A DNA stretch of 64,000 nucleotides from Sphingomonadales bacterium (GCA_038315875.1 JBBQAG010000001.1:523-64522), one strand, 5' to 3'; positions 1 through 18,586 are shown, counted from the stretch's first letter. Program-made: numbers and translations. Notes: generated from the letters alone by a model not told the origin.

Positions 1-623
1 TTGAAGGGCCGCAAGGATTATACGCTGCCACCTGCAAAATGCCAAAGCCCATGGAGCTCGGCGATGGCTGGCGGATCGAGGAAGTCAGCTTCAAGCCCTG
101 GGGCGCTTGCCGCCACGCTCATCCCGCGATCGACGCGGCACTCGCGCTGCGCGCGCGCGGGACGCTCGAGCTACCCGTGACCGTCGCAACGTTCGCCGAT
201 GCCCTCGCCTTTTGCGACCGCCCCGATCCCAAGACGCCGCAAGAGGCGAAATTCTCGCTGCAACACGCCGTCGCGGTGGTGGTGGCACGTGGCGTGCCGA
301 CGCTTGCGGATTTCGAGCCCGACGCGATTGCGGCACTCGCTGGCGTGCGCGCCGGGGTGCGGGTGATCGAAGACCCGATGATCACCGCGCGCTACCCCGC
401 TCATTTCGGCGCGACCGTCAAGGCCGGGCGCGATCACGAGGCGCTGATCGACACGCTCGGCGATCCCGAACGGCCATTGTCGCGCGACGGGGTGATCGCC
501 AAGGCGCGCGCGCTGTTCGCCTGGGGCGGGCTCGATCCGGCGCTGTCCGAGCGCGCGGCGACGCTCGCACTAGACAGCAACGATGCCGAGGGCGTGGTTG
601 GCTGGCTCGAAGAAATCCTGTGA
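1..623 (+). CDS. MmgE/PrpD family protein, C-terminal part (5' end outside window)
   Basis: Frame is open from nt 3 (EGPQGLYAATCK...), upstream of the ORF-track start. Has MmgE/PrpD motifs EGPQGL, KPWGACRHAH, AKFSLQHAVA and GDPERPLS. Confidence 0.85.
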   Translation, partial: EGPQGLYAATCKMPKPMELGDGWRIEEVSFKPWGACRHAHPAIDAALALRARGTLELPVTVATFADALAFCDRPDPKTPQEAKFSLQHAVAVVVARGVPTLADFEPDAIAALAGVRAGVRVIEDPMITARYPAHFGATVKAGRDHEALIDTLGDPERPLSRDGVIAKARALFAWGGLDPALSERAATLALDSNDAEGVVGWLEEIL

Positions 624-1906
624 ACGCGACTGCCACCCTGCTCGAATTCGTGCGCGCCGAGCATCGGCTACCACAAAGCGTGCGTGTCGATGCCGAACGC
701 CTGCTCGCGGACACGCTCGGGGTTGGCGCAGCAGGCGCGACGGCGCCGGGGGCAGCCGGGGTGCTTGCAGCGGCACAAGGTTGGGGCAATGGCAGTGACG
801 CCCGGTTGATCGGATCACCGGAGCGCCTGCCCGCCCCCGGCGCCGCCTTCGTCAACGCGTTTCGCGTCCACTGCCTCGAATGGGATGCGGTGCATGAGCC
901 CGCGGTTGTCCACGCAATGTCAGTCGTCACGGCAGCCCTTGCCGCGAGTATCGACCGGATGGGCGGCTGCGACCCCGAAGACGCGCTGACCGCGCTGGCG
1001 GTCGGCGTCGATATCGCCTGCGGACTGGGCATTGCGGCCACGTCCCCGCTCACCTTCTTCCGTCCGGCGACCGCCGGGTGCATCGGCGCGGCAATGGCGG
1101 TTGCGCGGATCGAACGACTCGAGCGACCAGCGGATGCCCTTGGCCTCGCTTATTCCTTCTGCGCGGGCACGATGCAGGCGCATGTCGAGGGATCAATCGC
1201 GCTCCCGTTGCAGATCGCCAATGCGGCGCGTTCGGCGATCATGGCGGTCGATCTCGCCAAGGCGGGGCTTAGCGGCCCTTATGACTCGCTCGAAGGCGCC
1301 TTTGGGTATTTCGCCCTGTTCGATCGCGGCGACCTGACAGCCTATGTCGCGCAGATTGGCACGCTTTGGCGGATCAGTGAGATCAGCACCAAGCCCTATC
1401 CATCGGGCCGCGCAAGCCATGCCGCGCTTGGCGTGCTGGCCGACTGGGTGCTCGATCCGACCAAGGTCGACCGGATCGAGGTGATCGCGCCGCCGCTGAT
1501 CCAACGCCTCGTCGGGCGGACAATGCCGCGCAGCATGACCCCGGCCTATGCCAGGCTGTGCCTGCCGCTGCTCGCAGGGATGATGATCGTCGATCGGCGG
1601 ATCGACCCGCGCCGGTTCGTGCCTGCGACGTTTTTCGATCCGGAGATTGCCGATCTGGCGGGGCGCGTATTCGTGACGATCGATGGCAATCCCGATCCCA
1701 ACGCGCTGTCCCCGCAGCGAGTGCGTGCGACGATGAAGGATGGGCGGGTAATCGAACGGGTGGTGCCCGCCACGCTCGGCAGCCCGCAATCGCCGCTCTC
1801 TCCCGAGCAGACAGAGGCAAAGCGCGATCTGGCTCGCGCACTGGCGCCCGAAGCCGATCCGCGGCTGTTCGAATCTCCTCTTGCCTGGTTCACGGAGCCG
1901 CGATGA
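620..1906 (+). CDS. MmgE/PrpD family protein (second paralogue)
   Basis: GTG 620 overlaps the upstream TGA (GTGA). Motifs NAFRVHCLEWDAVH, LEGAFGYF, KPYPSGRASH, LGSPQSPLS. Confidence 0.85.
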   Translation: MNATATLLEFVRAEHRLPQSVRVDAERLLADTLGVGAAGATAPGAAGVLAAAQGWGNGSDARLIGSPERLPAPGAAFVNAFRVHCLEWDAVHEPAVVHAMSVVTAALAASIDRMGGCDPEDALTALAVGVDIACGLGIAATSPLTFFRPATAGCIGAAMAVARIERLERPADALGLAYSFCAGTMQAHVEGSIALPLQIANAARSAIMAVDLAKAGLSGPYDSLEGAFGYFALFDRGDLTAYVAQIGTLWRISEISTKPYPSGRASHAALGVLADWVLDPTKVDRIEVIAPPLIQRLVGRTMPRSMTPAYARLCLPLLAGMMIVDRRIDPRRFVPATFFDPEIADLAGRVFVTIDGNPDPNALSPQRVRATMKDGRVIERVVPATLGSPQSPLSPEQTEAKRDLARALAPEADPRLFESPLAWFTEPR

Positions 1907-3267
1907 CCTTCCCGACCTATTTCGAAGCCTTTGATGCAAAACAGATGCTCGCCGATTATCCCGTCGGCGATGCCTTTATCGCGCGCTATACAGCCATGAG
2001 CCGCGACGAATTGCGCGCCATCCAGGAAGTGCGCTTCGCCACACTGATGAAGCGCGGCTGGGAGATTCCCTTTTATCAACGGCTATGGGGCGAAAAGGGT
2101 ATCGAGCCGGGCGATATTCGCAGCCTCGACGATATCACCAAGCTGCCCGTTTACGACAAGACCGATCTGATGGCCTCAGTCGCGGCGCACCCGCCCTATG
2201 GCGATTTCGGGGGGCGCGGCGGCGATCCGGTGATCTTCCACACCACGAGCGGCACCACCGGGCGCCCGCAACCCCTGCTGTTTGGGCCAAAGGGGCGCGA
2301 GATCACCAACCTGCTCGTCGGCCGGATGTATCGCTGGCAGGGTCTGTCGCCCGAGGACGTCGTGCAGTCGGTCTATGGCCACGGCATGATCAATGGCGGG
2401 CATTACATCCGCGAGGCCGTGACCCACTTCACCAACTCGCTGTTCCTGTCGGCAGGCACGGGAATCGAGACGCGCAGCGCAGCGCAAGTATCGCTGATGG
2501 CCGATTTCAAAGTGACGGTGCTGGTCGGCTTCGTCGATTATATCCGCAAGCTGGCCGATGTCGCGCGCGAGGCGGGGATGATCGACCAGATCAAGATCCG
2601 GATGATCTGCGGCCATCTCGGCACCGAAGACCGCGCCGCGACCGAAGCGGCCTGGGGCGGCGCGAAAGCGTTCGATTGGTACGGCGTTGGCGATACCGGA
2701 TCGATTGCTGGCGAAGGGCCGGAACGCGACGGGCTTTATGTGTGGGAGGACGCGCAATTCCTCGAACTGCTCGATGTCGAGACCGGTGCGCCCGTCCCGC
2801 ACGGTGAAACCGGCGACATGGTCGTCACTTGCCTGTTCAAGGACGATATCGCGCCGTGCATCCGCTTCAACACGCATGACATCACGCATGAACTGAGCGG
2901 CACCAATGCGACGGGCATGGCGTTCAAGCGGATCGCCGGTTTCAAGGGCCGAAGCGACAATATGGTCAAGCTGCGCGGCATCAACGTCTTTCCCCACGCA
3001 ATCGGCGCGATCATCGAGAACCGTGCGGACTTGACCGGCGAATATGTCTGCCGGCTGGTGCGAGATCCAGTGACTCAGCGCGACGACATGCTGGTGATCC
3101 TCGAAAGCCGCGGCGGCAGCGACACAGCGGCTCTCGGCGCGCTGTTGCGGCAGGGGCTCGGCGTCGAGGTATCGATCGCGATTGAACCACCAGGGGGGAC
3201 CGCAGACCTCACCCAGATCGACAGCCGCCAAAAGCCGATCCGGCTGATCGACGAGCGCGGACTGTGA
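1903..3267 (+). CDS. Phenylacetate-CoA ligase (PaaK)-like adenylate-forming enzyme
   Basis: ATG 1903 overlaps the upstream stop (ATGA). P-loop TTSGTTGRP, WYGVGD, IRFNTHD, GRSDNMVKLRGINVFP. Confidence 0.85.
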   Translation: MTFPTYFEAFDAKQMLADYPVGDAFIARYTAMSRDELRAIQEVRFATLMKRGWEIPFYQRLWGEKGIEPGDIRSLDDITKLPVYDKTDLMASVAAHPPYGDFGGRGGDPVIFHTTSGTTGRPQPLLFGPKGREITNLLVGRMYRWQGLSPEDVVQSVYGHGMINGGHYIREAVTHFTNSLFLSAGTGIETRSAAQVSLMADFKVTVLVGFVDYIRKLADVAREAGMIDQIKIRMICGHLGTEDRAATEAAWGGAKAFDWYGVGDTGSIAGEGPERDGLYVWEDAQFLELLDVETGAPVPHGETGDMVVTCLFKDDIAPCIRFNTHDITHELSGTNATGMAFKRIAGFKGRSDNMVKLRGINVFPHAIGAIIENRADLTGEYVCRLVRDPVTQRDDMLVILESRGGSDTAALGALLRQGLGVEVSIAIEPPGGTADLTQIDSRQKPIRLIDERGL

Positions 3268-3274
3268 TCGCCGG

Positions 3275-4441
3275 ATGATCGATTGGACCGATCTTGAAGC
3301 GCGTAACGCCCCCCTCAACGCCTTTGTCGATTGTGATCGCGGCGCGACGGCTGGCGAAGGACCGCTGGCGGGTGTGACGATCGGCATCAAATCCAACATC
3401 GCCGTCAAAGGCCTGCCCTGGACCGCGGGCATGGGCACGCGGCGCAGCGTGATCGCCGAGCGCGATGCCGCCGTCGTGGCGCAATTGCGCGCGGCGGGCG
3501 CGATCATCCTCGGCACGCTCAACATGCACGAGGCAGCGCTCGGCGCGACGAACGACAACGCATTCTACGGCCGCACGCACAATCCGCACCGGCATGACTA
3601 CACGCCTGGTGGTTCCTCGGGCGGCAGCGGGGCTGCGGTGGCGGCAAGCTTGTGCGACGTAGCGCTGGGCACCGATACCCTTGGCTCGGTACGAATTCCG
3701 GCGGCCTATTGCGGCGTCTGGGGACTGAAGCCAACGCTCGGCGCGGTGAGCGACGACGGGCTGGTGCATCTGGGCACGGCCTATGACTGTATCGGCCCGC
3801 TCGCACGCGACCTCGACTTGCTGGCGCGGGCGTGGGCGGTGATGGCGCCGGGGCAATCGGAGACGCCGTTCGCCCGGCAATTGATGCTTCGGAATCTTGG
3901 CGACATCGTAATCGAATCAGCGGTCCGAAGGGGCTTTGAGCGGGTCATGGCCGCGATCGACTTGCCCAATGCCAGCTTCGCACTGCCCGATCCACTGCCT
4001 GCAATCCGCATGGCCGGCCTGATCGATTCGGTCCACGAACTGATCGGCGATCTCGGCGAGGCGCGGCATGGCGATGGCGTGTCCGACGAGCTGAAATTCG
4101 TGATGAGCGCGGTTGGCTCGCTCGCCCCGACGCCCGATGTGGTCACGCGCACACGCACCGCGCTGGTCGACGCGCTTGGCGATGACGGCGTGCTCGTGAT
4201 GCCGACCGCACCGCAAGCAGCCTTCGCGCACGGCCAGCGCGCGCCCGTTACTCAGGCCGATTTCACCGCGATTGCCAGCGTTGCAGGCCTGCCCGCGCTG
4301 TCGATTCCGGCGGGCTTCGACGGCAACCGGCTCCCTGTCGGCGCGCAAATCGTCGGCCCGGCGGGCAGCGAGACGCGACTCATCGCGCTCGCCCGCCAGA
4401 TCGAGGCCAACATCCAAGCCTACGCGCCACCCTCACGCTGA
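3275..4441 (+). CDS. Amidase signature family enzyme
   Basis: IGIKSN (Lys), GGSSGGS and GTDTLGSVRIPAAYCG give the Ser-cisSer-Lys triad motifs. Confidence 0.9.
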   Translation: MIDWTDLEARNAPLNAFVDCDRGATAGEGPLAGVTIGIKSNIAVKGLPWTAGMGTRRSVIAERDAAVVAQLRAAGAIILGTLNMHEAALGATNDNAFYGRTHNPHRHDYTPGGSSGGSGAAVAASLCDVALGTDTLGSVRIPAAYCGVWGLKPTLGAVSDDGLVHLGTAYDCIGPLARDLDLLARAWAVMAPGQSETPFARQLMLRNLGDIVIESAVRRGFERVMAAIDLPNASFALPDPLPAIRMAGLIDSVHELIGDLGEARHGDGVSDELKFVMSAVGSLAPTPDVVTRTRTALVDALGDDGVLVMPTAPQAAFAHGQRAPVTQADFTAIASVAGLPALSIPAGFDGNRLPVGAQIVGPAGSETRLIALARQIEANIQAYAPPSR

Positions 4442-4457
4442 CCCCAGGAGAAAACCA

Positions 4458-4766
4458 ATGCGCATCATTGTGTTGTTCAATCTGAAGCCCGACACTGCGG
4501 TCGCCGACTATGAAGCATGGGCGCGCGGCACCGATATCCCCGGCGTCCGTTCGCTCAAATCGGTCAGCGATTTCCAGATCTATCGCACCACCGGCCTGCT
4601 TGGCGGCGATACGCCTGCCCCCTATTCGCATGCCGAGATCATCGACGTGGCTGATATGGACCTGTTCTGGCAGGAGGTCGTCCAGCCGGGCCCGCAAAAG
4701 GTCGCGGGCGAATTCCGCGCATTCCTCGCAGGGGAACCCTTGTTCATCACCACCGAGGCGCTGTGA
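4458..4766 (+). CDS. HapK/RedY-like small protein (dimeric alpha+beta barrel type)
   Basis: SD AGGAG then ATG 4458; 102 aa MRIIVLFNLKP...YEAWARGTDIPGVRSL...EIIDV resembles REDY-like HapK proteins (from recall). Confidence 0.7.
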   Translation: MRIIVLFNLKPDTAVADYEAWARGTDIPGVRSLKSVSDFQIYRTTGLLGGDTPAPYSHAEIIDVADMDLFWQEVVQPGPQKVAGEFRAFLAGEPLFITTEAL

Positions 4767-5560
4767 TGCGCTTTGCCGGCAAGACGATCGTGGTGACTGG
4801 ATCGGGGCGCGAGAAGGGGCTCGGCCAAGCGATCCTGCAGCGCTTCGCCGATGAAGGCGCGAATTGCGTGGTGAGCGACCGCGAGATTGGCGATGAAGCA
4901 CAGGCCGTGGCAAAGGAGTTGAGCGACCGGGGCGCCGCCGTTGCAACGATCGCCTGCGATGTTTCCGCGGCCGCGCAGTGCCAGGCGCTGGTGAAGAGCG
5001 CGGTCGGAGCGTTTGGCGGCATCGATATCTTCGTCAACAATGCCGGCATCGGCTTCATGATGAAGCCGTTCCTGGACGTCGAACCAGCGGACTGGGACAA
5101 GGTGATCGCGGTCAATCTGTCGGGCGCCTTTTACTGCACACAGGCGGCCGCCAAGGCGATGATCGCCGGCGGCCGCGGCGGGCGGATCATCAATATCGCC
5201 AGCCAGGCCGCCAAGACGGGGTTCCCGCATCTGCCGGCCTATGTGAGCTCGAAGCACGGCATGATTGGCCTGACCCGCGCCTCGGCGGTCGAACTCGGCG
5301 CGCACGGCATCACCGTCAACGCGGTTTGCCCCAATCATGTCACGACTGGCCTCGGCGCTGAACAAAACGCCTATTTCTCCAAACTGCTCGGCTTTGACAG
5401 CATCGACGCCTATTTGAAAAACATGGCCGCCAAGAACCCGATGGGCCGCCCCGGCCTCGCCAGTGACACCGCCGCCGCCTGCGCCTGGCTCGCCAGCGAA
5501 GATGCCGTTTACGTGACCGGCGAGGCAATCAATGTGAGCGGCGGCGAGGAAATGCATTAG
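4766..5560 (+). CDS. Classical short-chain dehydrogenase/reductase (SDR)
   Basis: TGSGREKGLG, NNAG, NIAS, YVSSK (YxxxK), VNAVCPNHV. Confidence 0.92.
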   Translation: MRFAGKTIVVTGSGREKGLGQAILQRFADEGANCVVSDREIGDEAQAVAKELSDRGAAVATIACDVSAAAQCQALVKSAVGAFGGIDIFVNNAGIGFMMKPFLDVEPADWDKVIAVNLSGAFYCTQAAAKAMIAGGRGGRIINIASQAAKTGFPHLPAYVSSKHGMIGLTRASAVELGAHGITVNAVCPNHVTTGLGAEQNAYFSKLLGFDSIDAYLKNMAAKNPMGRPGLASDTAAACAWLASEDAVYVTGEAINVSGGEEMH

Positions 5561-5585
5561 CCAATGTTTGACCACGCCAAACCAC

Positions 5586-5668
5586 CCGTCGCCCCGGGCT
5601 TGACCCGGGGTCCCGCTTCTGCCGCGACCGAGGATGAGCGGGACCCCGGGTCAAGCCCGGGGTGACGG
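5586..5668. repeat. REP-like inverted repeat: 32-bp arms, 19-nt loop
   Basis: 5586-5617 CCGTCGCCCCGGGCTTGACCCGGGGTCCCGCT is the reverse complement of 5637-5668 except for one G.T wobble. Each arm contains CCCCGGG-N5-CCCGGGG. Confidence 0.9.
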
Positions 5669-5749
5669 TAAGGTAGGTGGGTTTGACCGCCAGCAGCGAT
5701 GGGTCTCCCTCTCCCCTGCGAGTAGGGACAAGGGAAAAGGAACGATGGG

Positions 5750-6616
5750 GTGAAGGAAGAACGCATCGACTGGCCGAACGGCGCGAAGATCGCGCTGAGC
5801 ATCGTCGTCAACGTCGAGGAAGGCAGCGAGATGAGCGTCGCGCGCGGCGACCGCGGGATGGAGCCCGTCGACGAGCTCGGCATCCATATCAAATCGCCGA
5901 TCCGCAACTACGGCAATGAGAGCAACTATCTTTACGGCATCAAGGCAGGCGCGCCGCGGATCGTGAAGCTGTTGCGCGCCTACGATATCAACGCGAGCTG
6001 GACGGTTGCCGCGCTCAGCCTCGAAAACCACCCCGAGATCGCTGCCGCGATCCGCGATCTGGGGCACGAACCCGTCAGCCATGGCTATCGCTGGGTGCAT
6101 CAATTCAAGATGGACGAAGCCGCCGAGCGTGATTTCATCGCCAAGGCCGTCAGCTCGATCGAGGCAAGCACCGGCACCCGCCCCCATGGCTGGCTCAGTC
6201 GCTATTTCCATACGGAGAATACCCGCCGACTGCTGATCGAGGCGGGCTTCGCCTATCATATGGACGATTATTCGGGCGACGTGCCCTATTGGGACCGCAC
6301 CACCGTGCCCGGCAAGCCGATCGCCATCGTGCCCTACCAGCTCGACGATAACGACATGAAGATGTGGACCGACCCCGCCTATACGCCTGCCGCCTGGTTC
6401 GATTATGCGCGGCGCTGCTTCGATCAGCTGTACCGCGAGGGCGCCGAGGGCAACCCGAAGATGATGTCGCTTGGGCTCCATCTCCGCATCATTGGCCGGC
6501 CGGGGCGCATCTGGGCGTTCGAGGAGTTCTTGAAACACGTCCGCGCGCACGATGGCGTGTGGGTCGCCACACGACACGAAATCGCGCAGCATCTGGCGAC
6601 GGTGGAGCCAGCGTGA
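5750..6616 (+). CDS. Polysaccharide deacetylase (NodB/CE4) family, PuuE/allantoinase-like
   Basis: WPNGAKIALSIVVNVEEG, HEPVSHGYRW, YHMDDY, MMSLGLHLRIIGRPGR, VWVATRHEIA. Confidence 0.85.
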   Translation: MKEERIDWPNGAKIALSIVVNVEEGSEMSVARGDRGMEPVDELGIHIKSPIRNYGNESNYLYGIKAGAPRIVKLLRAYDINASWTVAALSLENHPEIAAAIRDLGHEPVSHGYRWVHQFKMDEAAERDFIAKAVSSIEASTGTRPHGWLSRYFHTENTRRLLIEAGFAYHMDDYSGDVPYWDRTTVPGKPIAIVPYQLDDNDMKMWTDPAYTPAAWFDYARRCFDQLYREGAEGNPKMMSLGLHLRIIGRPGRIWAFEEFLKHVRAHDGVWVATRHEIAQHLATVEPA

Positions 6617-7365
6617 CGCTGCGCCTCGAAACCGACGGCGCCATCGCGCATCTGATCATCGATCGCGCGGCCAAGCGCAACGCGATCACCCAGGCGATGT
6701 GGGAGCAATTCCCCAGCCTGATCGCCGCCGCCATGGCCGATGAAGCGGTGCGCGTCCTGATCCTGCGTGCCGCCGGGCCGGGCGCCTTCTCGGCGGGTGC
6801 CGATATCGCCGAATTCAGCGTCGGCGCCCGCGACCCTGCGTGGCGCGCGGCCAACCAAGCCGCACTCGCAGGCGCCCAGATCGCGCTGACACGCGCGCCA
6901 AAGCCCGTCATCGCCCTTATCGAGGGCGATTGCATAGGTGGTGGCTGCGGCCTGGCGCTCGCCTGCGACCTGCGCGTCGCCACCGCCAACGCCCGCTTCG
7001 GCATTACGCCCGGCAAGCTGGGCCTCGTCTATTCGCTCCACGATACCAAGCTGCTCGTTGATGCCGTTGGCCCGTCCCAGGCCAAGCGGATTCTGTTCAC
7101 CGCTGCCCTGATCGATTCGGTCGAAGCACAGCGTATCGGCCTGGTCGATCTGCTGGATGAAGACCCGATCGCGCTCGCCGAAACGATCGCTGCCAATTCG
7201 CCGCACACCGCGCGGCAAGCCAAGGCGATGGTGCGACGTATCCTGGACGGCCAGGCGCATGACGATGCCGAGACCAACGCGCTGTTCGCCGAGGCATTCA
7301 CGCTGCCCGATTTCGAGGAAGGCGTTGGCGCCTTCCTCGCCAAGCGAAAGCCGGTGTTCAAATGA
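6613..7365 (+). CDS. Enoyl-CoA hydratase/isomerase (crotonase) family
   Basis: GTG 6613 overlaps the upstream stop. FSAGADIAEF, KPVIALIEGDCIGGG, ACDLRVA, EGVGAFLAKRKPVF. Confidence 0.9.
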   Translation: MTLRLETDGAIAHLIIDRAAKRNAITQAMWEQFPSLIAAAMADEAVRVLILRAAGPGAFSAGADIAEFSVGARDPAWRAANQAALAGAQIALTRAPKPVIALIEGDCIGGGCGLALACDLRVATANARFGITPGKLGLVYSLHDTKLLVDAVGPSQAKRILFTAALIDSVEAQRIGLVDLLDEDPIALAETIAANSPHTARQAKAMVRRILDGQAHDDAETNALFAEAFTLPDFEEGVGAFLAKRKPVFK

Positions 7366-8270
7366 GCGACTTTGTCACCCATGGGCGGATCATCGGCGGA
7401 TTGGCGACGGTGCCCGATCTTGAGGCGAGCCTCGCCGATTACCGCGATCGATTGGGGTTGAAGGTGATCGAGCACGGCCCCCTGCCCGACGATCTTGCTG
7501 CGAGCTGGGGGTGTCCCGCCAATGCCGGCGCGCGCTTTGCCAGACTCGCCCCGATCAGCGGCGCGCCGTGCAGCATGCGGCTGGTCGAACAGCCACTCGA
7601 TCGCGATTTCGTGCCCACGCGGAGCTATGGCTGGGCGGCGTTCGAGATCACCGTGCAGGATGTATTCGGCTGGCCCGAAAAGCTTGACGGCAGCGGCTTC
7701 GACATCGTTGGCCCGCCGAAGGAAATTCCCGGCCTTCCCTATTTCGTCGCGATGCAGATGCTCGGACGCGGGCGCGAGATGATCTATCTGAACGAGGTCC
7801 GCGAAAATACGCCAACCTCCGATCTGCCCCCTGCGGCATCACCCGTCGATCATCTGTTCATCGTCATCCTCGCGAGCCCGGACCGCGCGGCGACGATGGC
7901 CTGGTATCACGACACGCTGGGGCTGGAGGAAGGCGGTAGCTACACAATCCCCTATTCGATGATCAACAAGGCGTTTGGCTTGCCCGACGGCCACCTGACC
8001 TCGCTGAGCATGGCGCAGAAAGGGCGGATGCCGATCGTCGAGATCGACGATTATCCGGACGTGGCAACCCCGCGCAGGCGGTCAGCCGGCTTGCTACCCC
8101 CGGGCAATGCGCTGGTGACGCTGGCGGTCGACACGCTCGATCTGCCTGGGCTCGATTTCATCACCCCGCCGGCGCTGCGCGACGGTCCCTTCTATGCGTT
8201 GCGCCGCGCCGCGACGGTGATCGGCCCGGCTGGCGAGTTACTGGAACTGGTGGAGATTGATCACCAGTAG
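7362..8270 (+). CDS. VOC/glyoxalase family protein (multi-module)
   Basis: Repeated VOC modules: VPDLEASLADYRDRLGL, SPDRAATMAWYHDTLGL, IGPAGELLELVE. Start overlaps the upstream stop (ATGA). Confidence 0.75.
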   Translation: MSDFVTHGRIIGGLATVPDLEASLADYRDRLGLKVIEHGPLPDDLAASWGCPANAGARFARLAPISGAPCSMRLVEQPLDRDFVPTRSYGWAAFEITVQDVFGWPEKLDGSGFDIVGPPKEIPGLPYFVAMQMLGRGREMIYLNEVRENTPTSDLPPAASPVDHLFIVILASPDRAATMAWYHDTLGLEEGGSYTIPYSMINKAFGLPDGHLTSLSMAQKGRMPIVEIDDYPDVATPRRRSAGLLPPGNALVTLAVDTLDLPGLDFITPPALRDGPFYALRRAATVIGPAGELLELVEIDHQ

Positions 8271-8331: not shown

Positions 8332-9045
8332 TCATCGGTCGCGAGGCGCCTGGTCCTTCAGTCGTGCCGCCGCTGCCATGGTTCGCGCATCGCGATCCGG
8401 CGAAAGCGCTGCTACCCGTTTGCGATAAAGTGCCACCGCATCGGCCCCCGCGCGTTCGGGTGAGCCACTATCGAAGGGCGGCGCGGGATCATATTCGAGG
8501 CTTAGTTGCACCATCCGGGCATGCGCCTCACCCCGGATTCGCGCGGTCAGCGCCAGTGCGAAATCGATGCCCGCCGTCACGCCGCCGCCCGTTACGCGAT
8601 TGCGATCGAAGACGTAGCGCGCTTGCTCGGGGATTGCGCCGAATGCAGCCAGATGCTCATGCTGCGCCCAGTGGCAGGTCGCACGATATCCCGTCAGCAA
8701 TCCGGCGGCGGCGAGCAGGATCGATCCAGTGCACACACTCGTTACCCACTCGGCGCCGGCAGCGGTCTTGCGCAACCATGCCAGCGTCGCATCGTCCTCC
8801 ATTGCCGCTGTCACGCCAAATCCGCCCGGCACGCACAGGATATCGGGCTGGGCGGCGGTGGCGAAGCTCGCGGTAGGATGAAGCGGGAAGCCGGCATCGG
8901 TCGGCACGGGACCCATCGTCTTGGCGACAAGATCGATCGTCATATTGCCGAGCCGCGACAGCACCTGTGCAGGACCGGTGAGATCGAGCTGGGTAACATC
9001 GGGAAACAGCAGAAACGCAACGCGGATCGGACTCAGTTCGGGCAT
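8332..9045 (-). CDS. DJ-1/PfpI family protein, isonitrile hydratase (InhA)-like
   Basis: FLLFPDVTQLDLTGP (Asp21), VPGG, SVCTG (Cys105), ATCHW, GGGVTAGIDFAL, VQLSLEYDPAPPFDSGSP. The 84-residue Asp-Cys spacing equals InhA Asp17/Cys101. SD GGAGG at 9055-9051. Confidence 0.88.
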   Translation of the reverse strand: MPELSPIRVAFLLFPDVTQLDLTGPAQVLSRLGNMTIDLVAKTMGPVPTDAGFPLHPTASFATAAQPDILCVPGGFGVTAAMEDDATLAWLRKTAAGAEWVTSVCTGSILLAAAGLLTGYRATCHWAQHEHLAAFGAIPEQARYVFDRNRVTGGGVTAGIDFALALTARIRGEAHARMVQLSLEYDPAPPFDSGSPERAGADAVALYRKRVAALSPDRDARTMAAAARLKDQAPRDR

Positions 9046-9069
9046 ATCGACCTCCAGCTATTCGAGGGA

Positions 9070-9139
9070 TGCCCAGGCGATGCGGCTGCAAACCCCGCGC
9101 TCCCCGGTGGTGCTCCACCCGATCGCCAGTTACGCGGTT
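9070..9139 (-). ncRNA. ZMP/ZTP (pfl motif) riboswitch aptamer
   Basis: Minus strand reads AACCGCGUAACUGGCGAUCGGGUGGAGCACCACCGGGGAGCGCGG-GGUUUGCA-GCCGCAUCGCCUGGGCA. P1 CCGCGU/GCGCGG, ACUGGCGA, P2 GGUGG/CCACC, GGGGAGC, P3 GCC/GGC, pseudoknot GGCG/CGCC. Ends 25 nt before the start codon. Confidence 0.9.
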
Positions 9140-9281
9140 ATGCCAATAGGTATCGCTGATTGGGGTCGTTTTCCAGCGTAAAGTCGGGCTGTCGTCCGGT
9201 CCCTTGATGGCACGGCAACACGAAACGTCTGCGTAACGGCTGCGTGCTTTTCAGATTCTTGCCATTATCATCCGCTAGGCC

Positions 9282-10667
9282 ATGCGCCCACTTCCTCAAT
9301 TCGCTGCCGGTTGCGCGATCATGCTTTCCGGATGTGCGCCTGTGCCCCGCATTGCCGTGCCACTAGCGGTGTTGTCGGTTGATTGGAGCCGCGATCCACA
9401 TGATCAAGGCGAGCTGACCAACCGGTCGCTTGCCGACATGCTGGGGTCGTCCGCGCTCGCCGCGCTGATCGATCGGGCGATGATCGCCAGTCCCCCGCTG
9501 ATCGCCGCCCGTGCACGGGTCGATCAGGCGGTGTCGCAGGTGCGTGTCGCGCGGTCGACAGGTCTGCCGCTGGTGTCGGCATCGGCGGGCGGCAGTGCTG
9601 CACGCGTTGGCGGGCGCAGTCCGTTCGATTTCACCAGCAGCTTTGCCGCCCTCGATGCGAGTATTTCGATCGACATTTCGGGCGGCATCCGCGCCGGACG
9701 TCGCGCCGCACGTGATCGCGTGAGTGCTGCCGATCTCGATGCGCAGGCGCTCGCGCTGGAAATCGGCGTGACGATTGCCCGGGTTTATGTCGATCGCGCG
9801 GCATTTCAGGCCAGGCTGAGGCTGATCGATCGCCAGATTGCCGCGACGACCCAGCTCCAGCACCGCATCGAGGCACGGCAGCGTGGCCACGCGCCGACGC
9901 CGATCGCGATCGGACTGCAATTGATCCGAGTCCAGAATCTGATCGCCGAGCGCAGCCGCCTCGATCAGGCGCTCGATCAGACCCGCACCGCGCTGGCCCT
10001 GCTGCTGGGTGAAGAGGCGCCGCGCTTTCGCGCAGTGCCAGCCGATCTTAACGCCTTCGATTACCGGACGACGACGGTACCAAGCCCCTCGCAGTTGCTG
10101 ATCGAGCGTGCCGATATCGCTGCTGCCGAACGTCGTATCGCTGCCGCTGGGGGGGACGTGGCACAAGCGCGCGCGGCCTTTCTGCCCCGGCTGGACCTGT
10201 CGATCAGCCGATCGGCAGAGAATTTCCTGACAGCAGGGCCATTTGCCGGGATGAGCATTGGCGGCGCCTTGCTCGCCCCGATCTTTGGCCGTGGCAGACT
10301 GCGCGGCAATCTCGAATTTGCCACCGCAGGACAGCGCGAGGCGGTCGCCAACTATCGAACGGTGCTGCTATCGGCCTTTTCCGATACCGAAAATGCGCTG
10401 TCGGCAGTTCGTCACGCCCGAGAGCGCGCCGCACTTCTCGCCGATATCGAACAGCGGGCGCTGACGACGGCGTCGCTGGCGGAGCGTCGTTATTTGACCA
10501 GCGGGGGTGATTTCTGGGCGGTAATCAATGTCCAAGACCTGTCGATCGCGGCGCAGGACGCCCGGCTCGTCAGCCTTCAGGAACAGCTCGAAGCGAGCAT
10601 CTCTCTCTACCGAGCGACACGGCGATCAGCGACGGCACCACGATTAGACGATAACCCGACAGACTGA
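9282..10667 (+). CDS. Outer-membrane factor (NodT/OprM/TolC family) lipoprotein
   Basis: Lipobox LSGC; two OEP-like repeats; signature PSQLLIERADIAAAERRIAAA...ARAAFLPRLDL. Confidence 0.85.
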   Translation: MRPLPQFAAGCAIMLSGCAPVPRIAVPLAVLSVDWSRDPHDQGELTNRSLADMLGSSALAALIDRAMIASPPLIAARARVDQAVSQVRVARSTGLPLVSASAGGSAARVGGRSPFDFTSSFAALDASISIDISGGIRAGRRAARDRVSAADLDAQALALEIGVTIARVYVDRAAFQARLRLIDRQIAATTQLQHRIEARQRGHAPTPIAIGLQLIRVQNLIAERSRLDQALDQTRTALALLLGEEAPRFRAVPADLNAFDYRTTTVPSPSQLLIERADIAAAERRIAAAGGDVAQARAAFLPRLDLSISRSAENFLTAGPFAGMSIGGALLAPIFGRGRLRGNLEFATAGQREAVANYRTVLLSAFSDTENALSAVRHARERAALLADIEQRALTTASLAERRYLTSGGDFWAVINVQDLSIAAQDARLVSLQEQLEASISLYRATRRSATAPRLDDNPTD

Positions 10668-10786
10668 ACGTCGCCGGCGGCGCGGCGCACTGGCATTTGC
10701 GGCACCTGCGGTTAGGATGCCGTCGATGCATACCGAGCGGCCGTCGCGGTCGATCATGCGATAATGACTGCGGGGCTTGGCGGATT

Positions 10787-11461
10787 TTGAATTACTGGCT
10801 GCTCGCGGGAATCGGCGTCGTCATTCTGGGCTTTGCGCTCCGGCTCAATCCGCTGCTGGTGGTTGCGGCGGCGGCAGGGGCGACAGGGCTGGCTGCGGGG
10901 ATGGCACCGCTTGCGATCATTGCGGCGTTCGGCAAATCCTTCAACGACAGCCGCTTCGTCACGATCATCTATATCCTGCTGCCCGTCGTCGGCTTGCTCG
11001 AACGGTACGGGCTGCAGCAGCGCGCGCGGACGGTGATCGGCGGCATCAAGGGCGCATCGGTCGGGCGGCTGCTGATCGCCTATATGCTGTTCCGCCAGAT
11101 AACTTCGGCGCTGGGGCTCATCTCAATCGCAGGCCCTGCCCAGACCGTGCGGCCGCTGGTCGCGCCAATGGCAGAGGCAGCGGCCGAGCGTGATCATGGC
11201 GATATCGATAATGCCACCCGGCAAAAGGTAAAGGCGTTTGCCGCGGCGAGCGACACGATCGGGCTCCTGTTCGGCGAAGATCTGTTCGTCGCGATTGGAT
11301 CGATCCTGCTGATCATTGGCTTTTTGAAGCAGAACGGCATCGAACTCGCGCCCTTCGAGCTTTCTGTCTGGGCGATCCCCAGCGCAATTGCGGCTTTCGC
11401 TGTCCACGGGCTACGCTTGCTGCTGCTCGACAGGGCATTGGCGAAGGCGCCGCGCCGATGA
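10787..11461 (+). CDS. DUF969 family membrane protein (predicted 5-oxoproline transporter subunit)
   Basis: Probable TTG start 10787 (NYWLLAGIGVVILGFALRLNPLLVV); LLERYGL, GPAQTVRPLVAPMAEAAA, GLLFGEDLFVA. Confidence 0.85.
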   Translation: MNYWLLAGIGVVILGFALRLNPLLVVAAAAGATGLAAGMAPLAIIAAFGKSFNDSRFVTIIYILLPVVGLLERYGLQQRARTVIGGIKGASVGRLLIAYMLFRQITSALGLISIAGPAQTVRPLVAPMAEAAAERDHGDIDNATRQKVKAFAAASDTIGLLFGEDLFVAIGSILLIIGFLKQNGIELAPFELSVWAIPSAIAAFAVHGLRLLLLDRALAKAPRR

Positions 11462-12399
11462 TCGGTCTGCCCGCGCTCTATGGCCTTGCCGGGCTGATTT
11501 TTGTCGGCTTCGCGATGATGAACGCGCGCGATGCGAGCAACCAAAAGCGGCTGGGGAATGGCGCCTTTTGGGGCTTGATCGCGGTCAGCTTTCTGCTCGG
11601 CGACTGGCTCGGAGATATCGGCAATGGTTTTCTCGCGCTGGGGCTGGTCGTGCTGGCGGGGTTCCGGCTGCTCGGGCGCGGCAGCCAACCGACGACGACT
11701 ACGCAGGAACGCAAAGAGAGCGCCGCGCTGCTTGGCAACCGCCTGTTTCTGCCAGCACTCATCGTGCCCGTCTGTGCGCTGCTTGGCACCGTGTTTCTGA
11801 AGGACAGCGGCCTGGTCGATCCCAAGCAGGTGACGTTGGTATCGCTCGGCGCGGGCGTGCTGATCGCGCTCGCGGTCTGCTATGCCTGGCTCAGGCCGCC
11901 GCTGCTCGCGCCGATCGACGAAGGTCGGCGGCTGATGGATTCGGTCGGCTGGGCAGCCGTTTTGCCACAGATGTTGGCCTCGCTCGGCGCCTTGTTCGCC
12001 TTGGCAGGGGTTGGGCAGGTGGTGGGGGCGCTGGCGGGCATGGCGATTCCACCAGGTAATCTGTTCGTCGCGGTATCGGTCTACGCGCTTGGCATGGCGA
12101 TGTTCACGATGCTGATGGGCAACGCTTTTGCCGCCTTCCCGATCATGACGGCGGCGATTGGCTTGCCCATTCTCGTCGGCGGCTTTCACGGCGATCCAGC
12201 GATCATCTGTGCGATCGGGATGCTTGCCGGCTTTTGCGGCACGCTGATGACGCCGATGGCCGCCAATTTCAACATCGTGCCGGCTGCATTGCTCGAACTC
12301 GACGATCAGAATGCGGTGATCAAGGCGCAGATCGGCACGGCGGTGCCGATGCTCGTGATCAACCTGCTGCTCATCTATTTCCTGGGGTTCAAGCAATGA
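11458..12399 (+). CDS. DUF979 family membrane protein (predicted 5-oxoproline transporter subunit)
   Basis: GWAAVLPQMLASLG, MGNAFAAFP, GTLMTPMAANFNIVPAALLEL, VIKAQIGTA; coupled to DUF969 by ATGA. Confidence 0.88.
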   Translation: MIGLPALYGLAGLIFVGFAMMNARDASNQKRLGNGAFWGLIAVSFLLGDWLGDIGNGFLALGLVVLAGFRLLGRGSQPTTTTQERKESAALLGNRLFLPALIVPVCALLGTVFLKDSGLVDPKQVTLVSLGAGVLIALAVCYAWLRPPLLAPIDEGRRLMDSVGWAAVLPQMLASLGALFALAGVGQVVGALAGMAIPPGNLFVAVSVYALGMAMFTMLMGNAFAAFPIMTAAIGLPILVGGFHGDPAIICAIGMLAGFCGTLMTPMAANFNIVPAALLELDDQNAVIKAQIGTAVPMLVINLLLIYFLGFKQ

Positions 12400-13382
12400 T
12401 CGATTCAGCGATCGCCAGCCGCTTTGCCGAGATCGCGCTTGGCCATGTTACGCGCGAGTATCCCAACAAGCTTGATCACGCGATGATCAATCCTGCAGAC
12501 GTGCAGGGCCCACGCGCGCTGCATCCGATCTTTTTCGGCAGCTATGATTGGCATAGCTGCGTCCATGGCTATTGGCTGCTGCTGCGGGTGCGGCGTGACT
12601 TTCCCGATATGGCGATCAACGCGCGGATCGAGGCGCTGGTCGCCGAAATGGTGACGGCGGCCAATGTCGAGGCCGAGCGCGCCTATCTCGATAGACCAAG
12701 TTCGGGCGGGTTCGAGCGGCCCTATGGTTGGGCATGGATGCTCGCGCTGCACGGCGAGGCGGCGCTGTCCGATCGGGGCGACTGGGCGGCATTGCTCGAA
12801 CCACTTGCACGCGCCTTTGCCGAACGGTTCAAACAGCATCTGCCCAAGCTCACCTATCCAATCCGCGTGGGCGCGCATGCCAATACCGCCTTCGCCATGA
12901 TCCTCGCGCGGCGATGGGCAGTTGCGCACGATATCGCGCTGCTCGACCTGATCGATGCTCGGGCGCGCGATTATTATGCCAATGACCGCGATTGCCAGGC
13001 CTGGGAGCCAGGCGGAGACGAGTTCCTGTCGTCTGCGCTGACCGAGGCCCATTGCATGGCGCGCATTCTGGGGCCCCAGGCATTCCGCGCCTGGTTTGCT
13101 GAATTCCTGCCGCGTTTTGCAGAAGGGCACCCCGCCAGCCTGTTCACGCCGGCGACCGTTTCCGATCGATCGGATGGCAAGATCGCCCATCTCGATGGCT
13201 GCAATCTGAGCCGTGCCTGGTGCCTGCGGGCAATCGCCGGCGCGCTGAACCCGGCAGAGGCGGCGGTCGCCCTCCGATCGGCCGAGCGTCATGCCGCTGC
13301 CTCGCTGAACCAGGTCGCCGGCGATTATATGGGCGAACATTGGCTGGCGACCTTCGCCCTGCTGGCTCTCCTGTCCGAATAA
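12396..13382 (+). CDS. DUF2891 family protein
   Basis: ATG 12396 (ATGA). REYPNKLDH, LHPIFFGSYDWHSCVHGYW, FERPYGWAW, HLDGCNLSRAW, YMGEHWLATFA. Confidence 0.85.
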   Translation: MIDSAIASRFAEIALGHVTREYPNKLDHAMINPADVQGPRALHPIFFGSYDWHSCVHGYWLLLRVRRDFPDMAINARIEALVAEMVTAANVEAERAYLDRPSSGGFERPYGWAWMLALHGEAALSDRGDWAALLEPLARAFAERFKQHLPKLTYPIRVGAHANTAFAMILARRWAVAHDIALLDLIDARARDYYANDRDCQAWEPGGDEFLSSALTEAHCMARILGPQAFRAWFAEFLPRFAEGHPASLFTPATVSDRSDGKIAHLDGCNLSRAWCLRAIAGALNPAEAAVALRSAERHAAASLNQVAGDYMGEHWLATFALLALLSE

Positions 13383-13408: not shown

Positions 13409-13426
13409 AATTTGTCCGGACATATT
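13409..13426. promoter_or_regulatory. Palindromic operator copy 1 (AATTTGTCCGGACATATT)
   Basis: 18-bp near-perfect palindrome abutting a plausible -35 TTGCAT (13426-13431), 16-nt spacer, -10 TAGCCT (13448-13453), upstream of the DUF1838-like gene. Confidence 0.75.
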
Positions 13427-13487
13427 TGCATTTTTCCGCGAACGCGCTAGCCTTGGCAACATCGCACAAGCTGCATTGGGGGATAGC

Positions 13488-14381
13488 ATGATCCGTTCGC
13501 TTCTGTTGGCCGTCAGCGTTGCCGCCATTTCACTCGCTGCGCCCGCCGCTGCCCGTCAGCTCGATCCCAATGTGCCCGCCGATGCGCTCGAGATCAGCAA
13601 GCGCACACAGTGCGGTGCAAAGGATGGCGAGCCAGCGGTATATCATTGGTCGGGCAAGGTTTATTCCAGGATTGAGGGCGAGCCAGACAAGCTGCTGTTC
13701 CTTGGCGAGGGGATGAATATCCGCCAGTGCGTCGCTGTCGACGATGCCAAGCGGGGCAAGGGCTATCGGCAGGTCAGTCGTGAAGTCATGCTGTTTCTCG
13801 ATCCCAAAACGGGGGAGATTGCGCGCCAATGGGCAAATCCCTGGACCGGTGAAACGCTGCCCGTCGGCCATATCGCCAATGATCCTGTCAACGGCCGGCC
13901 GAGCTTTCCGATCGGCGCTGACGGCAAACCCTATACCGTGACGATCAATCGGATGGGTGCCTGGGCGCAGATGCCCGTCGAAGTGCCGCTATTCTACGAA
14001 AACCCCCTTGGCGGCGATTATCAGGATTATGTCGGCAACAAATATCACGCGATGGAAATCTTCGATTTCGCCGCGCGCGCTGACGAACTGCTCGATACCA
14101 AATACCCCACCGCCTATCCCTCGGTATCTTGGGTGCGGATTTCCGATTGGATGCCGTGGATGAAGATGCGCGGCCGCCACGGCAACATTGTCTTCAACGC
14201 GATGGGCGCCAAGCTGAAAAACTTCGATGAATTGCCCAAGCTGCTGAAGGATGAGATCGCCAAGAACTATCCGGCCTGGACGTCGCCCCCGCCCGGCGAT
14301 GATGCGCGGCCCAACGATACGACCTGGACGGTGTTCAAGAAACAGATCGACTCCAGCCGCAAGGCAGCCGCCGGTAAATAA
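13488..14381 (+). CDS. Secreted DUF1838-like protein
   Basis: Signal peptide MIRSLLLAVSVAAISLAAPAAA; VYHWSGKVYSR...LFLGEGMNIRQC, QWANPWTGE, HIANDPVN, SWVRISDWMPWM. Confidence 0.75.
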   Translation: MIRSLLLAVSVAAISLAAPAAARQLDPNVPADALEISKRTQCGAKDGEPAVYHWSGKVYSRIEGEPDKLLFLGEGMNIRQCVAVDDAKRGKGYRQVSREVMLFLDPKTGEIARQWANPWTGETLPVGHIANDPVNGRPSFPIGADGKPYTVTINRMGAWAQMPVEVPLFYENPLGGDYQDYVGNKYHAMEIFDFAARADELLDTKYPTAYPSVSWVRISDWMPWMKMRGRHGNIVFNAMGAKLKNFDELPKLLKDEIAKNYPAWTSPPPGDDARPNDTTWTVFKKQIDSSRKAAAGK

Positions 14382-15136: not shown

Positions 15137-15151
15137 CTTGGCATCCTTTCT

Positions 15152-15190
15152 AAAAAAAGAGCTCCCGTCGGCCTTTGCCGAGGGGAGCTC
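15152..15190 (-). terminator. Rho-independent terminator after the TonB-dependent receptor gene
   Basis: Minus strand GAGCTCCCCTCGGC-AAAG-GCCGACGGGAGCTC followed by T7. Confidence 0.85.
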
Positions 15191-15212
15191 AAGGCCATGG
15201 TATTCCAATCAA

Positions 15213-17925: not shown

Positions 17926-17937
17926 TTGTCCAGACAA
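17926..17937. promoter_or_regulatory. Palindromic operator copy 2 (TTGTCCAGACAA)
   Basis: About 59 nt upstream of the receptor start; extra CTTGTC half-sites at 17894 and 17940. Confidence 0.75.
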
Positions 17938-18574: not shown

Positions 18575-18586
18575 TTGTCCGGACAA
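18575..18586. promoter_or_regulatory. Palindromic operator copy 3 (TTGTCCGGACAA, perfect)
   Basis: Overlaps a plausible -10 TAGCTT (18571-18576), with -35 TTGCGT (18549-18554) and a 16-nt spacer; 16 nt before the DUF1330 start. Confidence 0.8.

Follow-up and report, generated by a model that had tools for sequence, protein, structure and literature searches.

A nine-gene operon of a Sphingomonadales bacterium as part of a predicted catabolic island, possibly for cyclic imides

We analysed a stretch of 64,000 nucleotides of DNA from a Sphingomonadales bacterium (GCA_038315875.1, JBBQAG010000001.1:523-64522; hereafter the window), the first 8,270 of which carry nine genes, g1 to g9, on one strand. 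These genes appear to form one operon of a conserved catabolic island of ~50 kb and ~40 genes, which in this genome is split over two other contigs, C35 and C17, and positions 1-22409 of the window. With moderate confidence, we propose that the operon and the island serve the hydrolytic catabolism of alkyl-substituted cyclic imides or hydroxylactams, via half-amides to alkyl-succinates and alkyl-maleates and then through coenzyme A (CoA)-dependent cleavage. The assignments of individual steps are held with much lower confidence than the compound class.

The window has a GC content of 63-69% and is rich in spurious open reading frames (ORFs). Gene order, starts and junctions were taken from ORF calls, homology and start/stop coupling, by which the nine + strand genes were recognised, and families were assigned by Pfam and NCBIfam profile searches (Table 1). 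An earlier note on this DNA had listed nine genes for orphan enzymes on one strand, with five of the eight junctions overlapping and a single large gap that holds a repeat. The profile searches confirmed every family. Overlaps of 4 nt join g1/g2, g2/g3, g5/g6, g7/g8 and g8/g9, and the other three junctions are gaps of 7 nt (g3/g4), 16 nt (g4/g5) and 189 nt (g6/g7), the last carrying an inverted repeat with 32-nt arms. The word orphan is fair, since each NCBIfam match obtained scores below its curated cut-off, so that no gene of the nine ranks as an equivalog of any named enzyme. At its 5' end g1 is truncated by the start of the window and contig; the complete protein has 411 aa, and its first 32 codons lie on contig C17, with the start at C17:8253.

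About ten further copies of the repeat in the g6-g7 gap lie on contigs C54, C90, C111, C25, C110, C164, C101, C134 and C68. Among relatives, only some have the repeat in this gap, and the gap itself is missing in some (L005, for example). Because it belongs to a dispersed family and the gap can be missing, it is an inserted element resembling a repetitive extragenic palindrome (REP) and does not mark an operon boundary. Two unrelated operons split at the 189-nt gap are ruled out by the same facts, a mobile repeat in a gap that some relatives lack, and by the conserved gene order. Neither a promoter nor a terminator was detected on the + strand of 1-8270 by a consensus scan, a result that says little in either direction, and the sequencing runs that contain the window are DNA metagenomes only.

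Searching species-representative genomes with the ligase g3 yielded 389 relatives; all locus counts given here refer to the best 80 of these, which are all Sphingomonadales or mis-binned. Within these 80 the ligase is 78-94% identical. All nine genes are colinear in 63 loci, contig ends interrupt 14 others, and in the remaining three g9 or g8-g9 is missing, so the conserved-neighbourhood comparison that the earlier note had advised finds the nine genes travelling together. Median identity across loci is lowest for g4 and g5 (52%) and highest for g3, g6 and g7 (81-82%). When the family was sampled evenly, the ligase was present in 45 of 301 genomes (~15%) and 33 of 112 genera, always in single copy. 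Cultured carriers include Sphingomonas cavernae K2R01-6, Blastomonas natatoria DSM 3183, Sphingobium chungbukense DJ77 and Sphingorhabdus sp. 109. The cluster is accessory yet under strong purifying selection, and the synteny excludes a chance juxtaposition of its genes.

The window starts 522 nt into contig C81, which begins within g1. The last 7 nt of C17 are the first 7 nt of C81, and the two contigs map head to tail on the locus of a relative (L001, at 7134-7583 and 7577-7976); because of this overlap and mapping, C17 and C81 are neighbours in the genome. In relatives, the order upstream of g1 is a TonB-dependent receptor on the - strand, a + strand block of uB (a 226-aa membrane protein and the first gene of the block), a CitE/HpcH lyase, a MaoC hydratase, an acyl-CoA dehydrogenase and two family III CoA-transferases, and then a - strand GntR-UTRA regulator. 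The upstream genes recur in 66-72 of the 80 loci, and the same genes fill C17 here. The earlier note had treated the nine genes as a self-contained pathway while advising a look upstream of nt 1 for more genes and a regulator. Both are found on C17, and the idea of a self-contained unit falls with them: a divergent GntR gene and a Ccl/Ich/Mcd/CoA-transferase block adjoin g1, and a common operator links ~30 further genes.

According to NCBIfam searches with the L021 orthologues, RipC/Ccl is the closest model to the lyase (239 bits, cut-off 375) and RipB/Ich to the hydratase (237 bits, cut-off 340), neither enzyme reaching equivalog rank; the CoA-transferases group among mesaconate and glutarate CoA-transferases. 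The lyase and hydratase belong to the same families as RipC/Ccl and RipB/Ich and probably share their chemistry, and the upstream block is an itaconate/methylsuccinate-type enzyme set homologous to a characterised cluster. That cluster, known from Pseudomonas aeruginosa (PA0878-PA0883) and Cupriavidus necator, combines Ict, Ich, Ccl and Mcd with an MmgE/PrpD methylsuccinate isomerase, and in P. aeruginosa it also includes the VOC lactonase Rdo (127 aa) (PMC9875883, PMC12290011).

A shared palindrome connects the parts of the island. The form ATTTGTCCGGACAA is invariant in the aligned receptor-uB spacers of relatives. Its 12-mer TTGTCCGGACAA has four exact copies in this genome against 0.1 expected, at C17:1828 (between receptor and uB), C17:2596 (between uB and CitE), C35:12201 and window position 18575, and sites with one mismatch occur elsewhere in the window (Table 1). 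We scanned the relatives' genomes with the 14-mer, allowing at most one mismatch and using the reversed motif as a control. Nine of ten genomes gave 6-22 matches, clustered within ~50 kb around the locus, compared with 0-1 for the control. The regulator carries a GntR helix-turn-helix domain (PF00392) and a UTRA domain (PF07702), and these domains together with a palindrome common to several promoters fit a GntR/HutC-type regulon. We infer that the GntR/UTRA regulator controls the island through the predicted operator TTGTCCGGACAA, which we read as a repressor site common to the island. The group of Sphingomonas populi, S. pokkalii and S. hylomeconis (L041, L049, L055) has no GntR gene between the second CoA-transferase and g1; in S. 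pokkalii, regulation appears to have been replaced, since its genome contains zero copies of the operator.

The gene content of C35 also belongs with the locus. Nearly the whole C35 gene set adjoins the receptor-uB side in three relatives, Sphingomonas cavernae, Sphingorhabdus sp. 109 and Pelagerythrobacter marinus, two of which have chromosome-scale contigs. In the same relatives, the DUF1838 gene, a receptor and the quinone-reductase-like gene, which here lie at 12.4-22.4 kb of the window, are found on one side or the other of the locus. The DUF1838 gene adjoins g9 and the quinone-reductase-like gene in P. marinus and uB in Sphingorhabdus sp. 109, and the quinone-reductase-like gene of the window is the orthologue of a 324-aa gene that follows g9 in many relatives (36 of 80 loci; 69% identity to the L021 gene). 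The intervening DJ-1/PfpI, OEP, DUF969 and DUF979 genes were rejected as members of the unit, being found beside g9 in 0 of 80 loci, and for this reason the segment looks like an insertion into the island.

On one side of its operator, C35 encodes a GlcD-like FAD oxidase, a methyltransferase-like protein, a DUF1330 protein, an aldehyde dehydrogenase resembling succinic semialdehyde dehydrogenase (SSADH), two PuuE/CE4-like proteins and one isochorismatase-family hydrolase. The divergent side encodes LeuC and LeuD paralogues, the former passing a subfamily cut-off while falling short of the equivalog one, as well as a CoA-transferase, an HMG-CoA-lyase-like protein, an alpha/beta hydrolase and a DUF3598-like protein. 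Across the island, C-N hydrolases comprise three PuuE-type enzymes, one amidase-signature enzyme and one isochorismatase-type enzyme. The island is equally well equipped for CoA-dependent cleavage of branched C4/C5 diacids, with a ligase, a dehydrogenase, at least three CoA-transferases, and lyases and hydratases of two types each. No oxygenase was present among the island genes scanned, which fits hydrolytic ring opening. At least nine of the ~40 co-regulated genes have no significant Pfam match or only a DUF. The operator-linked genes without a family (Table 1) may encode new enzymes or binding proteins for the pathway; three of them, at window 14387-15208 and 18898-19470 and at C35:6237-6983, have conserved homologues in the islands of relatives.

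We compared g1 and g2 with characterised members of the MmgE/PrpD superfamily, to which PF03972 and PF19305 scores above the gathering threshold assign them. Residues were aligned to iminodisuccinate (IDS) epimerase at H85, D/E88, H99, Y145, H150, K198 and K266 (2HP3 numbering). In 76 of 76 sequences g1 reads N85 E88 H99 Y145 H150 K198 K266, which keeps six of the seven positions and places Asn at H85. In 78 of 78 sequences g2 reads H/E/H/(P,A,G)/F/L/K, which keeps four (Y145 becomes P, A or G, H150 becomes F, and K198 becomes L). Both patterns hold in every distant lineage examined. The His/Tyr two-base pair and both lysines have been proposed to be catalytic in IDS epimerase and methylsuccinate isomerase, and H150 and K198 take part in carboxylate coordination in the family, whose enzymes all act on 2- or 3-substituted succinates, including iminodisuccinate. 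Because invariant Phe and Leu replace H150 and K198, the substrate of g2 may lack one free carboxylate. The comparison refers to IDS epimerase, and neither gene follows the published rule that the isomerase gene adjoins the Mcd gene.

The nearest solved structures to g2 are cis-aconitate decarboxylases (E 2e-21), and a search for its homologues was saturated by Sphingomonadales proteins with generic names only. No NCBIfam model matches g1 or g2 at E 0.1 or better. We rejected both as 2-methylcitrate dehydratase PrpD, as they match no curated PrpD model and the island holds no prpB or prpC gene. Nor is g2 simply a dead partner for g1, because in some lineage, within the regions examined, either type stands beside ligase and amidase without the other. 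The two MmgE/PrpD subtypes are undescribed.

Among the other enzymes, g3 matches NCBIfam PaaK models at 165-168 bits (cut-offs ~646-700) and, in the PDB, PaaK 4R1L (1e-49) and 2-hydroxyisobutyryl-CoA synthetase 6HDW (7e-37); its P-loop TSGTTGRP is invariant. Scoring far under the equivalog cut-off, and with no paa genes present, it was rejected as a phenylacetate-CoA ligase. The Lys/cis-Ser/Ser triad of g4 (K39, GGSSGG, GSVR) is invariant in 77 sequences, as in amidase-signature enzymes; the full-length PDB match is malonamidase E2, the best NCBIfam and PDB hits are GatA, and AtzE and allophanate hydrolase models also match. The short-chain dehydrogenase/reductase (SDR) g6 keeps invariant TGxxxGxG, NNAG, Ser and YxxxK, with Asp39 at the end of beta-2, an NAD-specifying position, and is a complete SDR, probably NAD-dependent. 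For g7, TIGR03212 gives 255 bits against a cut-off of 424.6, and the PDB matches are PuuE 3CL6 (5e-67) and 3S6O (6e-60); the Glu-His-Trp triad motifs NVEEG and HG[WY]RW, plus GLHLR, are invariant in 71 sequences. g7 has the PuuE fold and mechanism class and is probably not an allantoinase.

The crotonase-fold protein g8 has GGGCG and TP[AG]K at the two canonical Glu positions, which we take to be rat enoyl-CoA hydratase E144 and E164. These replacements are found in 69 of 69 sequences and also in PDB 4WCZ, so that the fold (PF00378) is present and the enoyl-CoA hydratase residues are missing; hydratase chemistry is unlikely. Its close structural-genomics orthologues, 4WCZ (3e-86) and 4OLQ, have no assigned function, and a crotonase of this glutamate-less kind is undescribed. 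AlphaFold2 models of g5 and g9 gave the fold class only. g5 (predicted local distance difference test score, pLDDT, 96) matched OAC cyclase, HapK 2JDJ, methylmuconolactone isomerase and hydroxynitrile lyase in Foldseek with template modelling (TM) scores of 0.7-0.8, and is predicted to adopt the Dabb fold, resembling cofactor-free cyclases, isomerases and lyases of small ring compounds. g9, with no PDB or NCBIfam match by sequence, was modelled as a two-domain VOC protein (pLDDT 92) that resembles two-domain glyoxalase I, GLOD4 and PcpA (TM ~0.6). In one distant relative (L114:4349-7798), three tandem VOC-fold paralogues of ~370-390 aa lie between the CoA-transferases and the regulator, and one of them is homologous to a VOC fragment at the start of C35.

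Orthologous ligases also occur outside Sphingomonadales. In a phylum-wide sample they share 56-61% identity and stand clearly apart from PaaK paralogues at ~30-37%. Three genomes of another alphaproteobacterial family (f15) retain a block of CitE, MaoC, acyl-CoA dehydrogenase and two CoA-transferase genes, GntR, the ligase, the amidase, the crotonase and a RipA-type CoA-transferase; two of them have both MmgE/PrpD types, and the third has the g2 type only. All three also carry an operon of a membrane protein, an FAD oxidase, an SSADH-like aldehyde dehydrogenase and a crotonase, of which the oxidase and aldehyde dehydrogenase are orthologous to C35 genes (47% and 56% identity). One genome of another class is reduced to the regulator, both MmgE/PrpD types, the ligase and the amidase, together with two CoA-transferases, one of RipA type and one of family III. 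The Tistrella mobilis plasmid pTM2 (L153) has a minimal divergon of five genes, GntR and a CoA-transferase opposite a PrpD gene of the g1 type, ligase and amidase. This divergon lies at 181-187 kb of the record of a 690-kb plasmid, where an aminotransferase, an M20 hydrolase, an MFS transporter and a second amidase adjoin it. The operator core TGTCCGGACA is found immediately 5' of g1 in the three f15 genomes, the other-class genome and pTM2, and also 5' of CitE in two of the three f15 genomes. Since distant lineages share the core and operator without g5, g6, g7 and g9, the operator, regulator and PrpD-ligase-amidase core are old, and those four genes are additions made in Sphingomonadales.

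From these families and residues we can sketch a route, each step of which is conditional. TonB-dependent receptors, the MFS anion symporter and the small membrane protein would import a small N-heterocycle whose five-membered ring is an alkyl-substituted lactam or imide. The NAD-dependent g6 would oxidise a ring hydroxylactam to the cyclic imide, g7 would open the imide to a half-amide, and g4 would split the half-amide into ammonia and an alkyl-substituted succinate. With its His/Tyr two-base residue set, g1 could epimerise the 2-substituted succinate, and g2 could act in stereo-editing on a relative without one free carboxylate, such as a half-amide or ester. CoA ester formation would fall to g3 or the neighbouring CoA-transferases, and cofactor-free isomerisation, epimerisation or decarboxylation to g8, g9 and g5. 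The Mcd-like dehydrogenase, Ich-like hydratase and Ccl-like lyase of C17 would then convert the product to acetyl-CoA and a 2-oxo acid. A parallel branch on C35 could handle unsaturated, maleimide-type congeners by means of two PuuE-like hydrolases, an isochorismatase-type (maleamate-type) amidase, a LeuCD-like hydratase, a CoA-transferase and HMG-CoA-lyase-like cleavage.

We favour a five-membered (succinimide or maleimide) over a six-membered ring because of the 2- and 3-substituted succinates on which MmgE/PrpD enzymes act. Ring-oxidising, ring-opening and deamidating roles are given to g6, g7 and g4 because PuuE-type imidases and a chain of SDR, CE4 and amidase are both documented. An imidase and a half-amidase were reportedly described in the cyclic-imide metabolism of Blastobacter by Ogawa, Soong and Shimizu. 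PuuE-type enzymes hydrolyse cyclic imides (PMC11424739), and in the last steps of Aspergillus nidulans nicotinate catabolism the SDR HxnW, the CE4 imidase HxnM and the amidase-signature enzyme HxnN lead from hydroxylactam to imide, half-amide and diacid (PMC9304392). The earlier note had proposed a catabolic unit for an N-containing carboxylic compound, which the analysis supports, and had pointed out the lack of prpB/prpC, paaABCDE and purine-degradation partners, none of which is present; the prp (methylcitrate), paa (phenylacetate) and purine pathways were rejected on family membership. Its statement that it could name no matching pathway holds for the substrate but goes too far for the logic, as the trio of SDR, PuuE-type hydrolase and amidase has the fungal precedent just described. 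Full-text literature searches found no published pathway or characterised counterpart for the gene combination.

Several points weigh against the imide proposal. g7 is nearer to the allantoinase PuuE than to imidases of the Pseudomonas putida or HxnM type. The order of steps and the roles of g2, g5, g8 and g9 are guesswork, and g4 could be a glutaminase partner of the ligase, in amide synthesis instead of hydrolysis. The GntR-g1 spacer of Sphingomonadales (~44 nt, with ~30-50 nt in most loci; C17:8208-8253 here) holds no operator; for this reason, and with no + strand promoter-like site within the operon, g1-g9 may be transcribed from the uB/CitE promoter by read-through across the antisense GntR gene. 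The f15 genomes lack g5, g6, g7 and g9 while retaining the ligase, the amidase, g8 and the g1/g2 types. Because distant relatives keep g1-g4 and g8 without those four, the ring-opening part is lineage-specific, and the core may act on an open-chain amide. Taken as an explanation of its own, this would have g1-g4, g8 and the CoA-transferases degrade an open-chain amide of a substituted succinate, of succinamate type or of N-substituted aspartate/asparagine type, with the ring-opening genes secondary in Sphingomonadales. The f15 genomes agree with it, as do pTM2 and the other-class genome, reduced to GntR and CoA-transferase with PrpD-ligase-amidase, and so does the use of 2-substituted succinates, including iminodisuccinate, by MmgE/PrpD enzymes. 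It is, however, compatible with the imide proposal, in which the half-amide is an intermediate, and g5-g9 of Sphingomonadales are translationally coupled to the core and equally conserved. We think it rather unlikely.

The kinship with PA0878-PA0883, where an MmgE/PrpD isomerase and a VOC lactonase stand beside Ict, Ich, Ccl and Mcd and to which the C17 block is homologous, would also suit a peripheral funnel for N-free branched short-chain dicarboxylates (for example methylsuccinate stereoisomers, or the itaconate derivatives 2-hydroxyparaconate and itatartarate), with g4 and g7 as esterases or lactonases. We consider this unlikely given the heavy C-N cleavage set of three PuuE-type enzymes, an amidase with an intact triad and an isochorismatase-type enzyme, the two domains and 302 aa of g9 compared with the 127 aa of Rdo, and the failure of any NCBIfam model to match g1 or g2. 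A variant ureide or hydantoin (allantoin-like) pathway is suggested by the matches of g7 to TIGR03212 (7e-76) and PDB PuuE (5e-67) and of g4 to AtzE and allophanate hydrolase models. Yet the scores fall far under the curated cut-offs (255 versus 425 bits for g7), the island has no allantoate, ureidoglycolate, urease or uricase genes, and the context is that of CoA-dependent diacid cleavage, which makes such a pathway highly improbable. Equally little credence goes to a biosynthetic operon in which amide synthesis would be the task of the PaaK-like ligase together with a GatA-like glutaminase, with the HapK/RedY-like protein in the role it has in prodiginine clusters. GatA is indeed the best NCBIfam and PDB hit of g4, and the HapK family comes from a pigment biosynthesis cluster; but the linked genes are a GntR/UTRA regulator, TonB receptors, an importer-type MFS transporter, acyl-CoA lyases, an acyl-CoA dehydrogenase and CoA-transferases, and no polyketide synthase, nonribosomal peptide synthetase or export genes are present.

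Within the imide proposal, one specific source of substrate can be named, although speculatively and with a low probability. The island could be dedicated to monopyrrolic oxidation products of chlorophyll, haem or bilins: methyl-, ethylmethyl- and methylvinyl-maleimide, hematinic acid, and hydroxylactam fragments such as bilirubin oxidation end products (BOXes) and propentdyopents. Tetrapyrrole-derived maleimides and hydroxylactams occur naturally in leaves and sediments. Several PuuE-type imidases would serve differently substituted rings, alongside two kinds of half-amidase; MmgE/PrpD epimerases would act on chiral alkyl-succinates, the ligase on the propionate side chain and LeuCD-type hydratases on alkyl-maleates. 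Since each tetrapyrrole fragment has a methyl and a second substituent, the many imidases, epimerases and hydratases would be explained. A literature search found no bacterial pathway for hematinic acid or maleimides, and if this idea is true the island would fill a missing step in the turnover of tetrapyrrole carbon and nitrogen.

Whatever its source, identifying the substrate would give functions to thousands of proteins (g2 alone has 4081 relatives at E 1e-30 or better) and would show one place where methylsuccinate-type diacids, of unclear environmental origin according to the literature, arise in nature. It would also supply new imidases, half-amidases and epimerases for biocatalysis. Reduced versions of the island occur in at least three other Pseudomonadota lineages (the f15 family, the other-class genome and the Tistrella plasmid), and the two new MmgE/PrpD subtypes belong to a superfamily with only four characterised activities. 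The operator common to the island makes the question directly testable.

Table 1. Features of the operon and of the linked parts of the island (window positions unless a contig is given)
Feature	Position	Strand	Evidence or remark
g1, MmgE/PrpD type a	..623	+	Pfam MmgE_PrpD E 5e-24 (PF19305)
g2, MmgE/PrpD type b, 428 aa, GTG start	620-1906	+	Pfam MmgE_PrpD E 2e-39 and 2e-14
g3, PaaK-like adenylate-forming (CoA) ligase, 454 aa	1903-3267	+	weak Pfam AMP-binding and AMP-binding_C_2; NCBIfam PaaK models to 1e-49
g4, short amidase-signature amidase, 388 aa	3275-4441	+	Pfam Amidase 1e-76, 259 bits
g5, HapK/Dabb-fold protein, 102 aa	4458-4766	+	Pfam HapK 2e-4, under gathering score
g6, classical SDR	4763-5560	+	Pfam adh_short 7e-55
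REP-like palindromic element in g6-g7 gap	5586-5668		arms 5586-5617 / 5637-5668, 32 nt, 97% complementary
g7, PuuE-type (CE4-fold, metal-independent) cyclic amidohydrolase, 288 aa	5750-6616	+	Polysacc_deac_1 1e-9; PuuE TIGR03212 7e-76
g8, crotonase-fold protein lacking both hydratase glutamates, 250 aa	6613-7365	+	Pfam ECH_1 (PF00378) 1e-41
g9, two-domain VOC (glyoxalase-fold) protein, 302 aa	7362-8270	+	Pfam Glyoxalase 4e-8
DJ-1/PfpI, outer-membrane efflux protein (OEP), DUF969/DUF979 membrane pair	8332-12399		between g9 and the remainder of the island
Operator-linked genes without Pfam/NCBIfam match	12405-13340, 14387-15208, 18898-19470	-	profile searches
Operator-like palindrome TTGTCCGGACAt, one mismatch	13412-13423		between 311-aa gene without assigned family (-) and DUF1838 gene (+)
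DUF1838 protein, putative regulon member	13476-14381	+	Pfam PF08894
TonB-dependent receptor, putative regulon member	15213-17867	-	Pfam Plug and barrel; operator 17926-17937
Operator-like palindrome TTGTCCaGACAA, one mismatch	17926-17937		beside TonB receptor gene
Exact operator-like palindrome TTGTCCGGACAA	18575-18586		motif scan of genome
Major facilitator superfamily (MFS) transporter, anion:cation symporter type	19814-21124	+	Pfam MFS_1; best NCBIfam TIGR00893 (2A0114 family)
Quinone-oxidoreductase-like medium-chain dehydrogenase/reductase (MDR)	21435-22409	+	Pfam ADH_zinc_N
Operator-linked genes without Pfam/NCBIfam match	C35:6237-6983, C35:7441-7884		profile searches

The proposed logic joins two known kinds of pathway, cyclic-imide hydrolysis and CoA cleavage of the itaconate/methylsuccinate type. 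Like the cluster of the latter type, the locus brings together a CitE/HpcH lyase, a MaoC hydratase, an acyl-CoA dehydrogenase, family III CoA-transferases, MmgE/PrpD and VOC proteins, and g1 retains the His/Tyr/His/Lys/Lys residues proposed as catalytic in methylsuccinate isomerase. It differs in a lyase and a hydratase that score under the RipC and RipB equivalog cut-offs, and in having two MmgE/PrpD types, one with Asn at the first His position and the other without three conserved residues, whose genes are not adjacent to the dehydrogenase gene. The ligase, amidase, PuuE-like hydrolase, SDR, crotonase and Dabb protein are extra here, as are GntR control and the TonB receptors. Maleate, citraconate and dimethylmaleate hydratases are of the LeuCD type, and (R)-citramalyl-CoA lyase belongs to the HMG-CoA-lyase family. 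On C35, LeuC, LeuD, CoA-transferase, HMG-CoA-lyase-like and isochorismatase-type genes lie together, and by family membership alone this set could cover the sequence from alkyl-maleamate through alkyl-maleate, alkyl-malate and a CoA ester to cleavage.

For imide hydrolysis, g7 shares its fold and metal-independent Glu-His-Trp triad with PuuE allantoinase and with the PuuE-type imidases BpIH and AfIH, in which cyclic amides or imides are hydrolysed (PMC11424739). Unlike the allantoinase, it scores 255 bits against the 425-bit equivalog cut-off and stands in a context unrelated to purines. The trio of an SDR, a CE4/PuuE-related hydrolase and an amidase-signature enzyme is common to this operon and to HxnW, HxnM and HxnN of the fungal pathway, although g7 falls in the PuuE branch and not in that of HxnM and the Pseudomonas putida YZ-26 enzyme. 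In the fungus the ring is a six-membered glutarimide and the product 2-hydroxyglutarate, and the pathway proceeds without CoA chemistry and without MmgE/PrpD enzymes.

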